IMG/VR virus record: IMGVR_UViG_2734482594_000023
DNA length: 7,698 nucleotides
DNA from: a virus
Taxonomy: Duplodnaviria > Heunggongvirae > Uroviricota > Caudoviricetes
Strand: one strand, 5' to 3'
In this document: piece by piece, positions 1 to 7,681 of the stretch
How positions within the stretch are numbered: position 1 is the stretch's first letter
How the letters are laid out: each line of letters opens with the position of its first letter
The notes under the pieces: model-generated
Told to the model about the DNA's origin: nothing
Database searches by the model: none
What the model saw: the letters and a program-made list of their open reading frames with translations, nothing else
Position numbers and translations under genes: made by a program

Positions 1-459
1 TTATTCAGTCGGCAGTGCTACGCGCCAGGGGAGCAGTTCGCCGACCCGGTTTATCGGCCAGTCGGCTATGACGTCAAGGACATAGCGGAGGTAGCTTTCT
101 GGCTCCACTCCGTTCAGTTTGCACGTCCCGATCAGGCTGTACAGCAGCGCTCCCCGCTCTCCTCCATGATCCGAACCGAAGAACAGGTAGTTTTTGCGGC
201 CCAGACTGACCATCCGCAACGCATTTTCAGCGATGTTATTGTCCGCCTCAGCCCAGCCATCATCTGCATAGTACGTCAGCGCCGGCCACTGGTTCAGGGC
301 ATATGCGAACGCTTTCGCCAGTTCTGAGTGTCGCGACAGGGTTTTCATCTTTTCACGCAGCCAGCTTTCCAGGGATTTCAGCAGCGGTTTCGTTTTCAAC
401 TGACGTTCGGCAAGGCGCTGTTTCAGCAGGAAGATGTCGTCAGAAGAGATGTCGTTCAT
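1..459 (-). CDS. IS66-family transposase, C-terminal fragment (truncated remnant)
   Basis: The 152-aa ORF carries the conserved C-terminal block of IS66-family transposases (...DNNIAENALRMVSLGRKNYLFFGSDHGGERGALLYSLIGTCKLNGVEPESYLRYVLDVIADWP...ELLPW). The upstream in-frame sequence hits a stop at 520-522, so the N-terminal two-thirds of the transposase and the other IS66 genes are absent on this side. Confidence 0.8.
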   Translation of the reverse strand: MNDISSDDIFLLKQRLAERQLKTKPLLKSLESWLREKMKTLSRHSELAKAFAYALNQWPALTYYADDGWAEADNNIAENALRMVSLGRKNYLFFGSDHGGERGALLYSLIGTCKLNGVEPESYLRYVLDVIADWPINRVGELLPWRVALPTE

Positions 460-522
460 AAGCCCGTATTTTACCGGGCTTATTCTGTGACAACCAGGAT
501 AAAGAGATTTACAGCATGGTCA
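1..522 (-). mobile_element. IS66-family insertion sequence remnant (3' portion only); right boundary approximate
   Basis: Transposase homology runs to the window edge at position 1 and cannot extend past the in-frame stop at 520-522. No IS terminal inverted repeat could be identified by eye. Confidence 0.4.
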
Positions 523-552
523 GGGAGGTCAGCAGCCGCTTAGGCTGTCTAT

Positions 553-642
553 AGCGCGGCGATTTTTTTGATACCGATTTGCATTTCATTTGATACCGCT
601 GAAAAACGCCGATACGCAACTTATTTGATACTAAATCGGCGC
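553..642. repeat. Cluster of short direct and inverted repeats (GATAC x4; CGGCGAT / ATCGGCG) downstream of mom; candidate transposase-binding sites at a Mu-like prophage end
   Basis: GATAC occurs at 570-574, 592-596, 611-615 and 627-631. TTGATACCG is repeated at 568-576 and 590-598. GCGCGGCGATTT (553-564) is near-inverted to AATCGGCGC (634-642), and GAAAAACGCCGA (601-612) resembles Mu end-type GAAAAACGCGAAA motifs as I recall them. Confidence 0.35.
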
Positions 643-677
643 TTTTCTTTTGAGTTTTAGAATGAGTTTTTAAGCGT

Positions 678-1415
678 TCATTCACTCTCTTTCAAACCAG
701 TTTTAACTGTTTGTGGTTTTGGGTAAGGCTGGACTTTGAATAGCTTTGTGTTAAGGCGTTTTCTGGCTCTCTTGTCCAGAAACCGGATGTAACGAAACTG
801 ACGGAATTTATGAACACTGGCTCTGTCGATATTAGCCCGCAGATGTTCACCTCGCTGTCCTCCTCGTTTGATTGCATTCTTGCAAATCTCGTGATACCAC
901 TCGCCATCAAGTTCATAGAATGTTGTTTCATGACTGCCTACATAATCAAAATTGCTTGCCTGGTACACGACACCAAGACAGCCACAACGCTCATCTGCAA
1001 ACGACTGAACCCACTGCACCTGCGGATAAAGTTGTCTGATTAGTTTGAGCGCGTAACTGATTGCCCTTGATTCGGAGTTTCTCGGCATACAGTCATGCAG
1101 CCATAACCGGTTAAGCTCCATATATTCGCGGTTCTGCGTGCCAGTTACGACGCGTGCACCATTGTTTGGATTAAGGGCATAACCCCATTGCATTACGCCA
1201 ACCAGCTCCCGTTCTGAAAATATGCCCAGATGAAGGTAGGAATTATTTACGAAACGATGGCTGTAATGTTTATTGACGACGACCAGCCGGGCCAGCCAGC
1301 AACTTATTGTCTCAACCCGTAACTCACGGGAGCCATAACCGACGATATTGTCGTTATAGTGAATAAGTTCAGGCGTGCTGATGATACGGGATGTAACTTG
1401 CTTTCTGTTCCCCAC
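678..1415 (-). CDS. mom: Mom-family DNA modification protein (adenine carbamoylmethylation, acyltransferase-like); start codon uncertain
   Basis: The ORF lies immediately downstream of, and overlapping, a Com-type zinc-finger gene, as in phage Mu. The proposed GTG start at 1415 gives 245 aa, close to Mu Mom (about 231 aa as I recall), has AAGGAAA 7-9 nt upstream, and sits in the 3' arm of a hairpin. The ORF track extends to a GTG at 1610, which I regard as over-extended; an ATG at 1577 is an alternative. Confidence 0.75.
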
Positions 1416-1569
1416 GACAGGATTTCCTTGTGTATGTGGGGTGCTCTGTGGCGCTCTGAGATGTGATTTGATTGAGGGTTTTACAGCGCGGACATTTAAC
1501 TTCCAGATAACTGAAGCTGGCTCGTGCCAGTAGCTTGTTACAATGTCGGCACCGTATGTTTCGATACAT
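1369..1569 (-). CDS. com: Com-family zinc-finger translational activator of mom
   Basis: The 66-aa product [33 protein letters not shown]... has a CxxC...CxxC zinc-finger layout like Mu Com. AGGAGG lies 10 nt upstream of the ATG at 1569, and the 3' end overlaps the mom start region by about 46 nt. The track's TTG start at 1614 is rejected. Confidence 0.8.
1410..1441 (-). promoter_or_regulatory. mRNA hairpin sequestering the mom GTG start, with the Shine-Dalgarno in the loop (putative Com-responsive translational operator)
   Basis: On the minus strand, CCCCAC (1441-1436) pairs with GTGGGG (1415-1410). The 20-nt loop contains AAGGAAA, and the GTG at 1415-1413 lies in the 3' arm. Confidence 0.45.
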
Positions 1570-1610
1570 GGCCGCATAACCTCCTGCTTTGTTGTTGATA
1601 TCTTTATCAC

Positions 1611-1702
1611 TCAATCGATCGACAAAAACGATCGATTTGATTTATTTAATTGATACAACAAATAACACGAAATGTCATTAGCGAAAATTTATGAGTTTGA
1701 TC
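1611..1702. promoter_or_regulatory. AT-rich divergent control region upstream of com/mom with clustered Dam (GATC) sites and an inverted repeat
   Basis: GATC occurs at 1617-1620, 1630-1633 and 1699-1702. The imperfect inverted repeat TCAATCGATCG-ACAAAAA-CGATCGATTTGA spans 1611-1640. In Mu, mom transcription is controlled by Dam methylation of upstream GATC sites (OxyR binding) and by C-protein activation. Confidence 0.4.
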
Positions 1703-1825
1703 ACTAATTTTAAACGGTGCTGTAACGCATAAGTGCTGAATGATTGTACATTTGAATACCGCAAAGCAAACAAATCAACTAATTTATAGAAGTCAATTGG
1801 TTAATTGCCAGCGTAAGAGGCTGCT

Positions 1826-2119
1826 ATGGACAATCATGTAACGACGAGAAATCGAAAAATGATTGAAAATGCGGAAATCTATAATGATTATTTTTCCGAT
1901 TATTCAGATGCCTGCAAATACAGTTCGAGTGCGGGAGAGTTCATATGCTTCAACTTTTTTATTAAATCTTATGTTTTTCCTCCACAGCAAGAAGATGGAG
2001 GTGTGCCACCTCCTGAAATCACTTTGCACCGTATAGCCTCCGTCTCAATGATGGAGCAACAGGCTAATGAGCTGTATAGCATTCTGGGAACGATTCTACA
2101 AAAGCGTGAATCGGACTAA
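1826..2119 (+). CDS. Hypothetical protein, 97 aa (low-GC orphan gene)
   Basis: ATG at 1826 is preceded by AAGAGG at 5-nt spacing and the frame is open for 97 codons. The gene is AT-rich compared with its neighbours and divergent from com/mom. I recognise no motif. Confidence 0.5.
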   Translation: MDNHVTTRNRKMIENAEIYNDYFSDYSDACKYSSSAGEFICFNFFIKSYVFPPQQEDGGVPPPEITLHRIASVSMMEQQANELYSILGTILQKRESD

Positions 2120-2286
2120 TGATACCGGTTCATTTGCCTGCCCGGATGGGGAAGCAGGATTGACTGCTCCATAAGCAGCTATATTTCTGAATACGAAATA
2201 CTATCCAGCGATTACATATGGCTGGATAGCGGCAAAGATGTTTTCATTAGTGTCAAACCGGCAGAGGACACCACCGGTTTGTATTG

Positions 2287-2541
2287 TTACATCATGGTAC
2301 TGTCAGTTCCGGGCTGAGCCGGGTCTGGTTGCTCTGGCTGCGCGTCGGTTTTCGGCTCATTATCAGCATCACTGGCCGCAACTGCTGGCCCAATAAGTTT
2401 TGCCAGCACTTCATCAACGTAAGTGTCGATTTGTGCCTCAAAATCCTTGCGGACCTGCGCTTTCAGCAACTTATTTACTTCACCGGAATACAGTGCCTGT
2501 TTTACCAGGTCTTCAGTGACGGTGCCTTTAATTTCTGGCAT
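2287..2541 (-). CDS. Hypothetical acidic protein, 84 aa
   Basis: ATG at 2541 has a strong AAGGAGG 7 nt upstream. The product is net acidic (about 16 D/E against 8 K/R) with a Pro/Asp/Glu-rich tail. It lies 35 nt downstream of the small membrane-protein gene, consistent with an operon. Confidence 0.65.
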   Translation of the reverse strand: MPEIKGTVTEDLVKQALYSGEVNKLLKAQVRKDFEAQIDTYVDEVLAKLIGPAVAASDADNEPKTDAQPEQPDPAQPGTDSTMM

Positions 2542-2576
2542 GTATATCCTCCTTATGCGGGAATAAAGCCCTGCAA

Positions 2577-2759
2577 TCAGGGCTGGGTCGGGTCTTTTGG
2601 GAGCGGAGTTACCTGCGCTGTTTTACTGAGTTTTTCAGCTGCTGCGTCCTCAATTTTGCGGCGAACATAATTTCTGATGGCCTTATAACCACCACTCACC
2701 AGATATAACGCACATACTGCCGTGCAGAAATACAATAAAATAAGCTGTAAAAATGTCAT
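2577..2759 (-). CDS. Small single-pass membrane protein, 60 aa
   Basis: ATG at 2759 is preceded by GGGAGGG. The product MTFLQLILLYFCTAVCALYLVSGG has one hydrophobic helix followed by a basic, charged tail (KAIRNYVRRKIED...). The track's TTG start at 2771 is rejected. Confidence 0.55.
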   Translation of the reverse strand: MTFLQLILLYFCTAVCALYLVSGGYKAIRNYVRRKIEDAAAEKLSKTAQVTPLPKDPTQP

Positions 2760-2774
2760 TATCCCTCCCAATTA

Positions 2775-2801
2775 TTGACATGGTGTTGACACCGGTAATA
2801 T
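2775..2801 (+). promoter_or_regulatory. Putative sigma70-type promoter on the plus strand, overlapping a 12-bp palindrome
   Basis: A perfect TTGACA at 2775-2780 is followed by a 15-nt spacer and TAATAT at 2796-2801. A second TTGACA lies at 2786-2791, and GGTGTtgACACC (2782-2793) is palindromic. The short spacer is a weakness. Confidence 0.3.
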
Positions 2802-2855
2802 CTGTTAGGTAAAAAGGTGCACTGCATTTTTTGCTTTGGATATAACGATCTTTTT

Positions 2856-2896
2856 GCCGCCGGTTTCTTGTTTTCCCTTACCGGCGGCATTTTTTT
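2856..2896 (+). terminator. Rho-independent terminator, oriented for the plus strand
   Basis: GCCGCCGGT (2856-2864) pairs with ACCGGCGGC (2880-2888) around a 15-nt loop and is followed by T7 at 2890-2896. On the minus strand the stem is followed by AAAAAG, so it is not a good terminator for the esterase gene. Confidence 0.5.
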
Positions 2897-2903
2897 ATCC
2901 TGC

Positions 2904-4440
2904 TTACGCGTTATTCACTTCCACCACGATACTGTCAATCAGTACCGGGTAAGTCGCATTTTTAGTGATATCGGTCACGCGCAACTTGTCTGCCGTAAAC
3001 GTGCCGACCGGAGACTGCGACAGCATGAATGGTGTCCCGTCCTTACCATCAANNNNNNNNNNNNNNNNNNNNNNNNNNNNNNNNNNNNNNNNNNNNNNNN
3101 NNNNNNNNNNNNNNNNNNNNNNNNNNNNNNNNNNNNNNNNNNNNNNNNNNNNNNNNNNNNNNNNNNNNNNNNNNNNNNNNNNNNNNNNNNNNNNNNNNNN
3201 NNNNNNNNNNNNNNNNNNNNNNNNNNNNNNNNNNNNNNNNNNNNNNNNNNNNNNNNNNNNNNNNNNNNNNNNNNNNNNNNNNNNNNNNNNNNNNNNNNNN
3301 NNNNNNNNNNNNNNNNNNNNNNNNNNNNNNNNNNNNNNNNNNNNNNNNNNNTGAGCCTTGCCACCTCCGGCAGCCCAACCCTGTGGTGTCAACCGTCCTT
3401 CAGACTCAGATGCCCGGTAAGCAAATAGCGTACTCATCGTCGTGGTGTCTGCGGGTGGCGTGGACGGTTTTGATGGTGTATCAGGTGACGGCTTCTCATC
3501 CGGTGGTGTCACGGTCTGCCCACGCATCAGTTCAGCCGTGCGCCCTGCATGGAGCATAATAGCTGAGGCCAGACGGTCTGAAATGACGCCCCTGCGTGCC
3601 CATGAGCTGAAATGGCTGTCACGCTGTGTCGAAACAAAACTGCCCTGGGTTCGGGATGCTGCACCGTAATACCCGACAGCCACAATATCCGGGTCTTCCG
3701 CCGGAGCATTCGTTGGCGTGCNNNNNNNNNNNNNNNNNNNNNNNNNNNNNNNNNNNNNNNNNNNNNNNNNNNNNNNNNNNNNNNNNNNNNNNNNNNNNNN
3801 NNNNNNNNNNNNNNNNNNNNNNNNNNNNNNNNNNNNNNNNNNNNNNNNNNNNNNNNNNNNNNNNNNNNNNNNNNNNNNNNNNNNNNNNNNNNNNNNNNNN
3901 NNNNNNNNNNNNNNNNNNNNNNNNNNNNNNNNNNNNNNNNNNNNNNNNNNNNNNNNNNNNNNNNNNNNNNNNNNNNNNNNNNNNNNNNNNNNNNNNNNNN
4001 NNNNNNNNNNNNNNNNNGCGGTCAAACGAATCCGGTAACGGCAGCCCCTCGCCGTAGGCCATGCCATTTGACTGACCCGCGAGAATGACAACAAAGTAAT
4101 ATTCCGGCTCTGAACTGCTGCCATTCGTGCTACCGGAAGGCCCGGCGTTATCCGGTGCATTCCAGTCGGAGGGCGTGAGCGTTCCGGCCACGTCAGATGT
4201 GATTGGAATGATGCCAGTCACGCCTGAACTGGTGATTTCTGCACTGGGATTACCGGATACCGGCATTACCCATAATGGCTCTTTCGTGCTGAAGCGGATC
4301 ACGCAGTCTGCGAAGGTGATCCCCCCTTTATTACCCGAAGGGCGGAAAGGGCTTTCAATAAATGCCACCGTGCCACCGGCAACCTTGACTGAAAACTCTC
4401 CGGGCATGGCGGAGAGCATTTTCCACTTGGAGTCTGACAT
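2904..4440 (-). CDS. NanS-like sialate O-acetylesterase (SGNH/SASA-type) with an N-terminal extension and a C-terminal Pro/Thr-rich linker plus extra domain; frame ambiguous across masked blocks
   Basis: The N-terminal part (4440->4018) contains YYFVVILAGQSNGMAYGEGLPLPD, the GQSN nucleophile block of SASA/NanS esterases. After the mask, TNAPAEDPD...GYYG...SHFSSWARRGVISDR continues the esterase in a different frame, followed by TPPDEKPSPDTPSKPSTPP and a C-terminal region ending at the TAA at 2904. The span (1537 nt) is not a multiple of 3, so either a frameshift lies in 3722-4017 or the masking is not length-exact. Confidence 0.65.
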
Positions 4441-4516
4441 CGTCTTTTCTGCCTGTTTCTGAATTAAACAGAGTCAGAATAGCGACCGCTGAAAAATATG
4501 TGTTTTGCGGAAATTC

Positions 4517-4544
4517 AAAAAAGCGTCACGGTACTTTTGGTGAC
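4517..4544 (-). terminator. Weak hairpin plus U-run at the invertase stop codon
   Basis: On the minus strand, GTCAC (4544-4540) pairs with GTGAC (4529-4525) across a 10-nt loop, followed by GCTTTTTTG. The stem is short. Confidence 0.25.
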
Positions 4545-5136
4545 GGAGCTGGTGAGGCAGGAAAATAACGATAAAGGNNNNNNNNNNNNNNNNNNNNNNN
4601 NNNNNNNNNNNNNNNNNNNNNNNNNNNNNNNNNNNNNNNNNNNNNNNNNNNNNNNNNNNNNNNNNNNNNNNNNNNNNNNNNNNNNNNNNNNNNNNNNNNN
4701 NNNNNNNNNNNNNNNNNNNNNNNNNNNNNNNNNNNNNNNNNNNNNNNNNNNNNNNNNNNNNNNNNNNNNNNNNNNNNNNNNNNNNNNNNNNNNNNNNNNN
4801 NNNNNNNNNNNNNNNNNNNNNNNNNNNNNNNNNNNNNNNNNNNNNNNNNNNNNNNNNNTTGTCCGTAATGCTGCGGAAGTTAACGCCGCGTTGCCGGAGT
4901 TCTTCTGTTAAAAGGACAAGGTGCTGCATACTGCGTCCAAGGCGATCCAGTTTCCAGACCAGCAGGGTATCCCCTGGCCGGAGTCGCTTTAATGCGCGTT
5001 TAAGTCCGGGACGCTCCCTTGTCTTACCGCTTATTCTGTCTTCGAAAAACAGCTCACATCCTGCACATTCCAGCGCATTTCTTTGTAGCGCCGTATTCTG
5101 GTCATTTGTTGACACCCTGATATACCCAATCAGCAT
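4526..5136 (-). CDS. Site-specific DNA invertase, serine recombinase (Gin/Pin/Cin/Hin family); C-terminal frame differs from the ORF track
   Basis: The N-terminus MLIGYIRVSTNDQNTALQRNALECAGCELFFEDRISGK...LLVWKLDRLGRS is a canonical resolvase/invertase catalytic domain. Left of the mask, the frame reading LYRYFPASPAPSPKVP* (stop at 4528-4526) matches the Hin-type C-terminal helix-turn-helix tail (STLYRYFPAS). The track frame ending at 4474 is rejected. The span is not a multiple of 3 if the masked block is length-exact. Confidence 0.8.
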
Positions 5137-5430
5137 NNNNNNNNNNNNNNNNNNNNNNNNNNNNNNNNNNNNNNNNNNNNNNNNNNNNNNNNNNNNNNNN
5201 NNNNNNNNNNNNNNNNNNNNNNNNNNNNNNNNNNNNNNNNNNNNNNNNNNNNNNNNNNNNNNNNNNNNNNNNNNNNNNNNNNNNNNNNNNNNNNNNNNNN
5301 NNNNNNNNNNNNNNNNNNNNNNNNNNNNNNNNNNNNNNNNNNNNNNNNNNNNNNNNNNNNNNNNNNNNNNNNNNNNNNNNNNNNNNNNNNNNNNNNNNNN
5401 NNNNNNNNNNNNNNNNNNNNNNNNNNNNNN

Positions 5431-7123: not shown

Positions 7124-7681
7124 TCATGGCTNNNNNNNNNNNNNNNNNNNNNNNNNNNNNNNNNNNNNNNNNNNNNNNNNNNNNNNNNNNNNNNNNNNNN
7201 NNNNNNNNNNNNNNNNNNNNNNNNNNNNNNNNNNNNNNNNNNNNNNNNNNNNNNNNNNNNNNNNNNNNNNNNNNNNNNNNNNNNNNNNNNNNNNNNNNNN
7301 NNNNNNNNNNNNNNNNNNNNNNNNNNNNNNNNNNNNNNNNNNNNNNNNNNNNNNNNNNNNNNNNNNNNNNNNNNNNNNNNNNNNCGAGGGCTTCATCCGG
7401 TATTTATTTCCGGCATAACGCTGTCGCTCCGTGAGGGTGGCTCCGGCCATATCACACTCGGGAAGCCCGAGATAACGCTCCCAGTCTTCCAGCAGCAGGC
7501 GCGACGTGTCAGGGAAACGCTCGGCAAGCAGCTGTTTACCCGTCCAGGATACACGCGCTGTCGAATGACTGAGGCCCAGACATAATGATGCCAGTACGGA
7601 TGACGGACGCTTGTCCCATGCCAGCCCGTCAGGCAGTAACTGCAACAGGGCGCGCTGATGCGGGGTCAGGGTTACAGCCAT
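7124..7681 (-). CDS. Phage baseplate/tail protein (P2 gpI / Mu gp48-like, DUF2313-type); C-terminal half masked
   Basis: ATG at 7681 has AGGAGA 7 nt upstream. The N-terminus MAVTLTPHQRALLQLLPDGLAWDKRP...LLEDWERYLGLPE resembles the gpI/gp48 family. The gene sits directly upstream of the tail-fibre gene, as in P2 (I-H-G) and Mu (48-S-U). The TGA at 7126-7124 is in frame only if the masked block is length-exact. Confidence 0.65.
   Translation of the reverse strand: MAVTLTPHQRALLQLLPDGLAWDKRPSSVLASLCLGLSHSTARVSWTGKQLLAERFPDTSRLLLEDWERYLGLPECDMAGATLTERQRYAGNKYRMKPSXXXXXXXXXXXXXXXXXXXXXXXXXXXXXXXXXXXXXXXXXXXXXXXXXXXXXXXXXXXXXXXXXXXXXXXXXXXXXXXXXXXXXP

Follow-up and report, generated by a model that had tools for sequence, protein, structure and literature searches.

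The right end of an Sp18-type Mu-like prophage joined to an IS66-family remnant of Shigella sonnei type

Introduction

Transposable phages are distinguished in part by the bases at their ends and by the length of target DNA that they duplicate on insertion. Mu gives a duplication of 5 bp and B3 one of 6 bp, the canonical ends of Mu being TG...CA (PMC8705779). Transposable prophages that end in TA on both sides have been described in Leptospira, where they appear to be active, and the question was raised in that work of whether others exist elsewhere (PMC8705779). The described phages closest to the locus considered here are Sp18 of Escherichia coli O157:H7 Sakai and its relatives (Phi804-3; Mu_JNE082796 in CC119 STEC), a well-known group of transposable, Mu-like prophages that are found at variable sites, including the inside of other mobile elements (PMC7430833, PMC2669165, PMC10132054). 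In a search of the literature, neither the duplication length nor the terminal bases of Sp18-type phages were found to be stated.

The second partner in the locus is an insertion sequence of the IS66 family, the members of which have terminal inverted repeats, make an 8-bp target duplication and carry tnpA, tnpB and tnpC in that order, with a complete DDE_Tnp_IS66 domain in tnpC.

The two meet near the start of the window (by which is meant the whole stretch of viral DNA that was analysed, 7,698 nucleotides in length, IMG/VR record IMGVR_UViG_2734482594_000023). An earlier note, made from the letters of the window, had placed a Mu-like right end against IS66 DNA at this point and had suggested that the phage arrived there by transposition. 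Both suggestions have held up. Indeed, we consider it highly probable that an Sp18-type Mu-like transposable prophage has its right end (attR) at positions 550–677 and that positions 1–549 are the target DNA to which it became joined. The event is an ordinary junction of one mobile element with another, already known in kind, and nothing about it is new in kind.

Position of the phage end

Alignment to intact IS66 DNA, a comparison that the earlier note had proposed, places the breakpoint exactly between 549 and 550. Phage DNA begins at base 550, with 5'-TATAGCG, and four features can be assigned at and beyond this point:

546 to 549, no strand: TGTC (GACA on the sense strand of the IS), the probable target tetranucleotide at the phage end, assigned from the 4-bp duplications of sister prophages and the repeat_region of LC727881.1
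550 to 647, plus strand: attR module of the Sp18-type Mu-like prophage, terminus at 550, reading inward 5'-TATAGCGCGGCG, located by the start of homology at many independent insertions
678 to 1415, minus strand: mom (DNA modification), the last gene of the prophage, Pfam PF25680, E = 1.6e-77
1369 to 1569, minus strand: com, translational activator of mom, overlapping the start of mom, Pfam PF10122 and the annotation in locus L002

The position of the terminus follows from a comparison of independent insertions. When complete E. coli genomes are searched with positions 440–1700, there are 228 records in which the right end (the com-mom-end block) is at least 94% identical, the identity being 100% in eight genomes, and the genes that neighbour this right end differ (sgrR, bcsA, citF, flgL, bglJ, cho). 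The alignments of these records start between positions 543 and 550 of the window, most commonly at 550. Eleven right-end junctions, that of the window included, share sequence only from TATAGCGCGG inward, the base that precedes it being variable, and in every copy examined the right terminus reads ...GCGCTATA-3', that is 5'-TA when read inward. In GenBank record LC727881.1, moreover, the feature annotated as 'region of the inserted Bacteriophage Mu-like phage' starts at the base that aligns with 550. As to the inner limit of the end, a variant phage with different adjacent DNA is conserved from the terminus to about 647, after which the similarity collapses, such that the functional end module can be put at some 98 bp.

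The left ends of the family are likewise found at scattered sites. In other words, the prophage occurs at many unrelated chromosomal sites, as is expected of transposition and not of site-specific integration, and the phage family is mobile. Some genomes hold several copies of the prophage, as has also been reported (PMC10132054).

Positions 550–3052 of the window match, at 100% identity, the rightmost 2.5 kb of a sister prophage that lies in bglJ, itself a deleted copy of 19.4 kb. This prophage encodes, from its left end, a repressor, a Ner-like protein, a 680-aa transposase (Mu-transpos_C) and a MuB-type ATPase, and it also encodes Gam, Mor, lysis genes, a DNA invertase, Com and Mom. MuA-type and MuB-type proteins are therefore found in the sister prophage at the end opposite to attR, the corresponding left part of the window's own copy lying beyond the window.

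The likeness to Sp18, Phi804-3 and Mu_JNE082796 extends to the same right end, TATAGCGCGGCGATTTTTTTGATACC..., a left end of the same type, TGTAACCAGGTGAATCATTTGATACC, com and mom at the right end, scattered sites of insertion and a 4-bp duplication. The O157 copies are ca 95–96% identical to the window over com and mom, and several copies from non-O157 E. coli are 100% identical. Where the window copy differs from the Sp18 group is in its location, which is the tnpB gene of a Shigella-type IS66 remnant.

The insertion sequence remnant

IS66-family DNA runs unbroken across positions 1–549, in the form of a remnant of S. sonnei type. Its first base in the window is the end of the tnpC' stop codon, and the ends of the IS lie beyond the window. 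The following features can be assigned within it:

1 to 459, minus strand: tnpC', an IS66-family transposase gene with an in-frame internal deletion, 152 aa, from Pfam and from alignment of its protein and DNA to intact ISEc8 and ISEc22
405 to 420, minus strand: deletion joint, a 16-nt microhomology that encodes QRLAE in both tnpC segments, from the overlap of the blastn pieces 1–420 and 405–549
458 to 483, no strand: hairpin with 9-nt arms and an 8-nt loop, in the native tnpB-tnpC spacer (460–508) and not of phage origin, from an inverted-repeat search
509 to 549, minus strand: the last 13 codons and the stop of an IS66-family tnpB (41 nt), cut by the phage and in a different frame from tnpC, from DNA comparison

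The earlier note had read the 152-aa open reading frame as only the last 152 codons of a transposase. This has proved incorrect, and the IS66 piece is no mere stump left by the phage. Within Pfam, the frame matches PF03050 at profile positions 195–283 of 284 only (its C-terminal third), together with PF13817, and most of the catalytic domain is lacking; the native start codon, however, is kept. The protein consists of ISEc8-type residues 1–18 fused in frame to ISEc22-type residues 379–512 (the last 134 codons), codons 19–378 having been lost. When the region is compared by blastn with a plasmid that carries intact copies of both ISEc22 and ISEc8, it splits into two pieces. Positions 1–420 are the final 420 nt of the ISEc22 tnpC (99.8%), and positions 405–549 are the end of tnpB, the spacer with its hairpin and the start of tnpC from ISEc8 (97.9% on the plasmid copy, up to 99.3% for other ISEc8 copies). 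The element differs from both ISEc8 and ISEc22, therefore, in that its tnpC is a hybrid of the two types without codons 19–378 and its tnpB is interrupted by the phage. The codons were lost by an in-frame deletion at the 16-nt microhomology.

The IS66 DNA had also been thought to give way within about 60 bp of the end of this frame. Instead, it continues to 549 as the spacer and the end of tnpB, and positions 500–549 agree at 100% with the ISEc8 orf2/tnpB of several Stx phage records (blastn). Homology to IS66 past 522 in another frame, which the earlier note had itself set against its idea, does occur as far as 549, but it moves the junction only and the idea stands. The same continuity is evident in an uninterrupted copy, HE616528.1 (locus L012), which we take to be S. 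sonnei 53G: the reverse complement of 1–549 aligns with its positions 9911–10459 over 549 nt with 1 mismatch (blastn), and the hairpin at 458–483 reads identically at 9973–9998.

The internal deletion in tnpC is older than the phage insertion, since the same deleted gene stands beside an intact, phage-free tnpB in 10 Shigella-type loci, taken from complete or large assemblies, in which the 152-aa frame follows an intact 115-aa TnpB. The neighbourhood of these loci contains ipaH-type genes and many other IS copies. Upstream of tnpB in the uninterrupted Shigella loci is the transposase gene of another IS, accompanied in some loci by a 76-aa open reading frame, and no tnpA-sized frame was called upstream of tnpB in these loci. 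An identical 152-aa protein is found on 674 contigs, complete S. sonnei chromosomes among them, where it bears the names 'protein encoded within IS [Shigella sonnei]' and Q3YYZ0_SHISS; an assembly chimera at the deletion joint is ruled out by this distribution. A search of 5,426 complete E. coli genomes did not turn up the joint, and a look-up of a 112-aa partial tnpC' from S. sonnei drafts (P0003) gave only contig-end fragments of unrelated IS66 copies. In short, the deletion is old and inherited, and the window most likely comes from an S. sonnei-type genome.

With residues 19–378 missing from tnpC, the DDE_Tnp_IS66 domain is incomplete, and tnpB is present as its last 41 nt only, such that the order of genes with an intact tnpB that typifies the family is not preserved. 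The IS66-family element in the window cannot be autonomous.

As to which of the two elements moved, it was the phage end that became attached to the IS, and not the IS that entered the phage, because the junction lies in the interior of tnpB, and not at an end of the IS, and falls exactly at the canonical terminus of the phage. On the sense strand of the IS, the target around the junction reads ...ATCGACTGGC followed directly by GACAGCC..., with the junction 41 nt before the tnpB stop. An exact look-up of two open reading frames that cross the junction, of 58 aa and 36 aa, returned no protein on record.

S. sonnei 53G also contains a related prophage, the left end of which lies in a phage tail gene ca 665 bp beyond the same tnpC'. 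The prophage of 53G and that of the window are treated here as independent insertions.

Repeats at the phage ends

The earlier note had drawn attention to four spaced GATAC motifs beyond the stop of mom. All four are present, at 570, 592, 611 and 627, although only three of them belong to a repeat family, the fourth (611–615) being part of the inverted repeat described below. The three lie in a direct repeat of 16–23 nt with the core TTTGATAC, which stands at 567, 589 and 624, or 18, 40 and 75 bp from the terminus. About 0.30 copies of the core are expected by chance, and none of 200 shuffles reached three. The copies, all assigned as a direct-repeat family, are:

559 to 574, plus strand: R1, the terminal copy, GCGATTTTTTTGATAC, its core 18 bp from the terminus, equal to L1 at the left end
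581 to 596, plus strand: R2, the second copy, GCATTTCATTTGATAC, 22 bp after R1
616 to 631, plus strand: R3, the third copy, GCAACTTATTTGATAC, 35 bp after R2 and inside the loop of the inverted repeat

At the left ends of the sister prophages, the same core is found at 18, 113 and 165 bp (L1–L3). In the 19.4-kb prophage in bglJ, TTTGATAC occurs exactly six times, three at each end, all pointing inward, and nowhere else. In other words, repeats are present at both ends of the prophage in inverted orientation, and the outermost copies are equidistant from the termini. This is the position and arrangement of transposase-binding sites that the earlier note had proposed, and the pattern points to R1–R3 and L1–L3 as the probable binding sites of the 680-aa DDE transposase, of which WP_373416440.1 is an example. 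On such a scheme, the transposase would bind R1–R3 (18, 40 and 75 bp) together with L1–L3 (18, 113 and 165 bp), pair the two ends and nick after the terminal ...TA-3', whereupon the ends would be joined to the target with a 4-bp stagger.

A comparison with Mu is instructive in this regard. Both Mu and the phage family of the window have three repeats at each end in inverted orientation, and the R1-R2 spacing of 22 bp is equal in the two. The core positions are also close, at 21/43 here against 22/44 in Mu on the right, and 21/116/168 here against 22/127/167 in Mu on the left. From the mom stop to the terminus there are 115 bp in Mu and 128 bp here, and the first bases are alike (TGAAGCGGCG in Mu, TATAGCGCGGCG here). 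The repeat itself, however, is unrelated, being TTTGATAC here and CGAAA/GTTTCA in Mu, and the third copy at the right end is, in contrast to Mu, a direct one at a distance of 35 bp. Between the transposase and MuA the identity is 24%, the alignment being confined to the catalytic core and C-terminus and leaving out the N-terminal DNA-binding part. At the DNA level, a similarity search with the right end, also proposed in the earlier note, found the ends of Sp18-type prophages, whereas the ends of Mu, D108 and SfMu of the genus Muvirus gave no match, similarity to these phages beginning inside mom at ca 717 (blastn, 11-base word, query 500–1300). The phage, then, works like Mu and is not its close relative.

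Terminal bases and target duplication

The right terminus of the family is ...TA-3' and not the ...CA-3' of Mu. On the left, most copies have TG as the terminus (TGTAACCAGG), and strains M3 and M18 have TA (TATAACCAGG); in the latter two, TA is therefore found at both ends. The TG...CA termini that characterise Mu-like phages are, in other words, not present at the right end.

The length of the target duplication also departs from that of Mu, and the 5-bp duplication that had been expected at this locus was not borne out in its relatives. In all eight of the sister prophages with matched flanks, the flanking target duplication is 4 bp and never 5. The duplications are GTAC, CGGG, CACC, CGCA, TACC, ATCA and AGAG, and TAAA for Sp18 of Sakai. 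A ninth prophage (L019/L020) has unrelated flanks and no duplication, and is rearranged. At 240 of 240 positions, empty sites rebuilt with a single 4-bp copy agree with cho and bglJ in their unoccupied state, and the depositors of LC727881.1 annotated a 4-bp repeat_region as a 'duplication due to insertion', this being the one GenBank record in which such an annotation was found. A 5-bp duplication with boundaries displaced by one base was considered and rejected, since no shift gives equal 5-mers in the eight prophages and the empty sites rebuilt with 4 bp leave no mismatch. The 4-bp duplication is accordingly a property of the phage family, as is the repeat architecture at both of its ends.

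By analogy with these sister prophages, a second copy of GACA is predicted at the left end of the window's prophage, which lies beyond the window, such that simple insertion is a prediction for this particular copy. In a simple insertion, the left end of the prophage would adjoin ...GGTATCGACTGGCGACA; the 5' part of tnpB would end in ...GAAGGTATCGACTGGCGACA and be followed directly by TGTAACCAGGTGAATC (or TATAACC...), at a distance of some 37–39 kb from position 550. The prediction has a practical use in that it can be tested at the opposite end of the insertion, where ...CTGGCGACA should run directly into TGTAACC.

It is possible to go further and to regard the Sp18-type Mu-like phages of enterobacteria as a naturally active lineage with an end chemistry of its own, comprising a ...TA-3' right terminus, a 4-bp stagger, its own repeat TTTGATAC and a divergent transposase. 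We would put the chances of this evenly. Among the papers searched, none describing Sp18-type end chemistry was found. The Leptospira prophages (PMC8705779) share TA with the right end here, and with both ends in M3 and M18, but they make 6-bp duplications and are B3-like, as against 4-bp duplications and a Mu-like gene order with com and mom in the phage here. Should the lineage prove to be undescribed, it would answer the question from the Leptospira work of whether TA-ended transposable phages occur in other bacteria and, if the proposal is true, would provide an E. coli system in which to ask why transposition can do without the conserved terminal CA and the 5-bp stagger. The TA terminus and the 4-bp stagger are the only points of the locus that merit the attention of a transposition specialist.

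Origin of the junction

The reading given above must be set against other explanations, of which the most durable is that transposition made the junction and that the locus was later rearranged, by phage-mediated deletion or inversion or by recombination between copies, such that the left end now lies elsewhere without GACA. There are some grounds for such a view, in that the ninth prophage (L019/L020), with its unrelated flanks, is a case in point, the multiple prophage copies of some genomes (PMC10132054) could recombine, and the proximity of the 53G left end to the same tnpC' makes a local rearrangement conceivable. Eight of the nine prophages examined are simple insertions, however, and, by our own derivation, a start from a 53G-like arrangement predicts the 5' part of tnpB joined to a left end, or else the 5' part joined to a right end together with the 3' part joined to a left end, and not the 3' part joined to a right end that is observed. 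Later rearrangement is consequently judged unlikely. The more specific proposal that the window was derived from the 53G prophage by intramolecular replicative transposition was set aside on our own reasoning, because the junctions that it predicts do not fit.

Less probable by some distance is that the join between 549 and 550 is an assembly chimera, or a read-through of packaged phage DNA, in which random host DNA follows the right end. Both sides of the join are repeated sequence and hard to assemble, a 36-nt sequence spanning it has no match in the public collections genome_contigs, viral_contigs and metagenome_contigs, and the junction occurs in none of the 5,426 complete E. coli genomes, an absence that is weak evidence given the few Shigella assemblies that the searched collections hold. 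A chance mis-join, however, would not come to lie exactly on the terminus of the phage, and packaged DNA would give heterogeneous minority junctions that build no consensus. Taken together, an artefact of either type seems very unlikely.

The boundary as originally drawn, with a bare C-terminal stump ending near 460–522, a 5'-TG terminus at 487, 517 or 546 and a 5-bp duplication, is refuted. In its favour are the canonical TG...CA and 5 bp of Mu (PMC8705779) and the presence of TG dinucleotides at or near the three positions (517 and 546 as cited, and 486–487 for the one given as 487). All of them nevertheless lie in IS66 DNA: 460–549 is native to the family, as the single mismatch over 549 nt in the uninterrupted locus makes clear, independent insertions share only what lies from 550 inward, where the terminus is 5'-TA, and the duplications are of 4 bp. 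Finally, an origin of the repeats in a conserved host intergenic region or in the IS itself, for which no supporting evidence was found, is refuted as well, given that the 550–647 block moves with the prophage into many unrelated genes and other prophages and is missing from the uninterrupted IS locus.

Transposition of an Sp18-type prophage into the IS66 remnant thus remains the preferred reading, and its wider importance is small, the event being one further insertion of a common Mu-like prophage into another mobile element. Its practical value lies in the boundary of the prophage, now fixed precisely at 550, and in a corrected annotation of the IS66 reading frame. This frame derives from an ancient in-frame deletion, is a marker of S. 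sonnei-type genomes and was not truncated by the phage.

The region downstream of mom

Between the phage terminus and mom lies one further feature, part of which the earlier note had recognised as inverted CGCCGAT elements:

601 to 647, no strand: 13-nt inverted repeat with arms at 601–613 and 635–647, 31–77 nt downstream of the mom stop, from a repeat search

The elements are real, and the repeat that contains them is longer than was stated, with arms of 13 nt that are 92% complementary (one mismatch). On the sense strand of mom, the repeat forms a 13-bp stem with a 21-nt loop that holds R3, and its 3' arm ends in UUUUUC. The RNA fold of a 141-nt region has z = -3.76, and no shuffle folds as well. 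The repeat escaped a simple scan for terminators on account of its 21-nt loop. Its most likely role would be that of a mom terminator, although with low confidence, since the repeat also sits within the conserved end module. Mom and its stop codon, at 678–680, are as the earlier note had them, Mom and Com both being confirmed by Pfam. In the prophages that are 100% identical to the window, the gene is annotated as Mom, and it has ca 73% nucleotide identity to the mom gene of Mu.

Termini and target duplication

The Sp18-type Mu-like prophages differ from Mu itself at their boundaries. Mu makes 5-bp target duplications and has TG...CA ends (PMC8705779). The Sp18-type prophages have, by contrast, a 4-bp duplication and a right end that reads ...TA-3', the terminus lying at position 550 in the window. 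The comparison covered the sister prophages at L002 (25842/45214), L003-L008, L021-L025 and L036-L037, and the duplication was 4 bp in all eight of those with matched flanks, Sakai Sp18 among them. In the variants of E. coli M3 and M18, TA is present at the left and right ends alike. The annotation of record LC727881.1 includes a 4-bp duplication, and a literature search found no paper discussing this feature of Sp18-type phages.

The copy in NZ_CP034806.1 (ends at 3310883 and 3350321) is flanked by unrelated genes, for an Ig-like domain protein and DUF5682, and comparison of its two flanks found no target duplication. Together, these features point to a chromosome rearrangement in this strain, either phage-mediated or recombinational.

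The IS66-family remnant and its surroundings

The deletion joint of tnpC', the transposase remnant beside the right terminus, lies within a 16-nt identity at window 405-420, where an ISEc8-type 5' part meets an ISEc22-type 3' part. Since its two parts come from different IS66-family members, the remnant in Shigella is a hybrid and not the product of a deletion inside a single IS copy.

In HE616528.1, which we take to be S. sonnei 53G, the left end of a related Mu-like prophage lies ~665 bp past the same remnant and interrupts a phage tail gene (L012 11101-11160 vs L013 11101-11150). Across related genomes, two Mu-like insertions thus lie at most ~1.2 kb apart, one on each side of tnpC'; their proximity may be due to chance or may mark a local hot spot.

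Prophage genes in the window

2287-2541 (-), DUF826 protein gene, between the invertase region and com
2577-2771 (-), DUF1378 protein gene, likewise
4474-5136, DNA invertase gene, adjoining the tail-fibre segment
5431-6596, tail-fibre segment
3053-3351, 3722-4017, 4578-4858, 5137-5430 and 7132-7384, five N runs of 253-299 bases each

The N runs partly mask the DUF6645, invertase and tail genes, and ORFs called across them are not interpretable.

DUF826 and DUF1378 genes are typical of lambdoid (Stx-type) phages, and Mu is not known to have any of this type at the corresponding place. Their presence here suggests that lambdoid prophages have taken part in mosaic exchange with this phage.

The tail-fibre segment is inverted (99.6% identity) relative to the otherwise near-identical L002 prophage. 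It is a G-segment-like invertible host-range switch, in the opposite state to that of L002.
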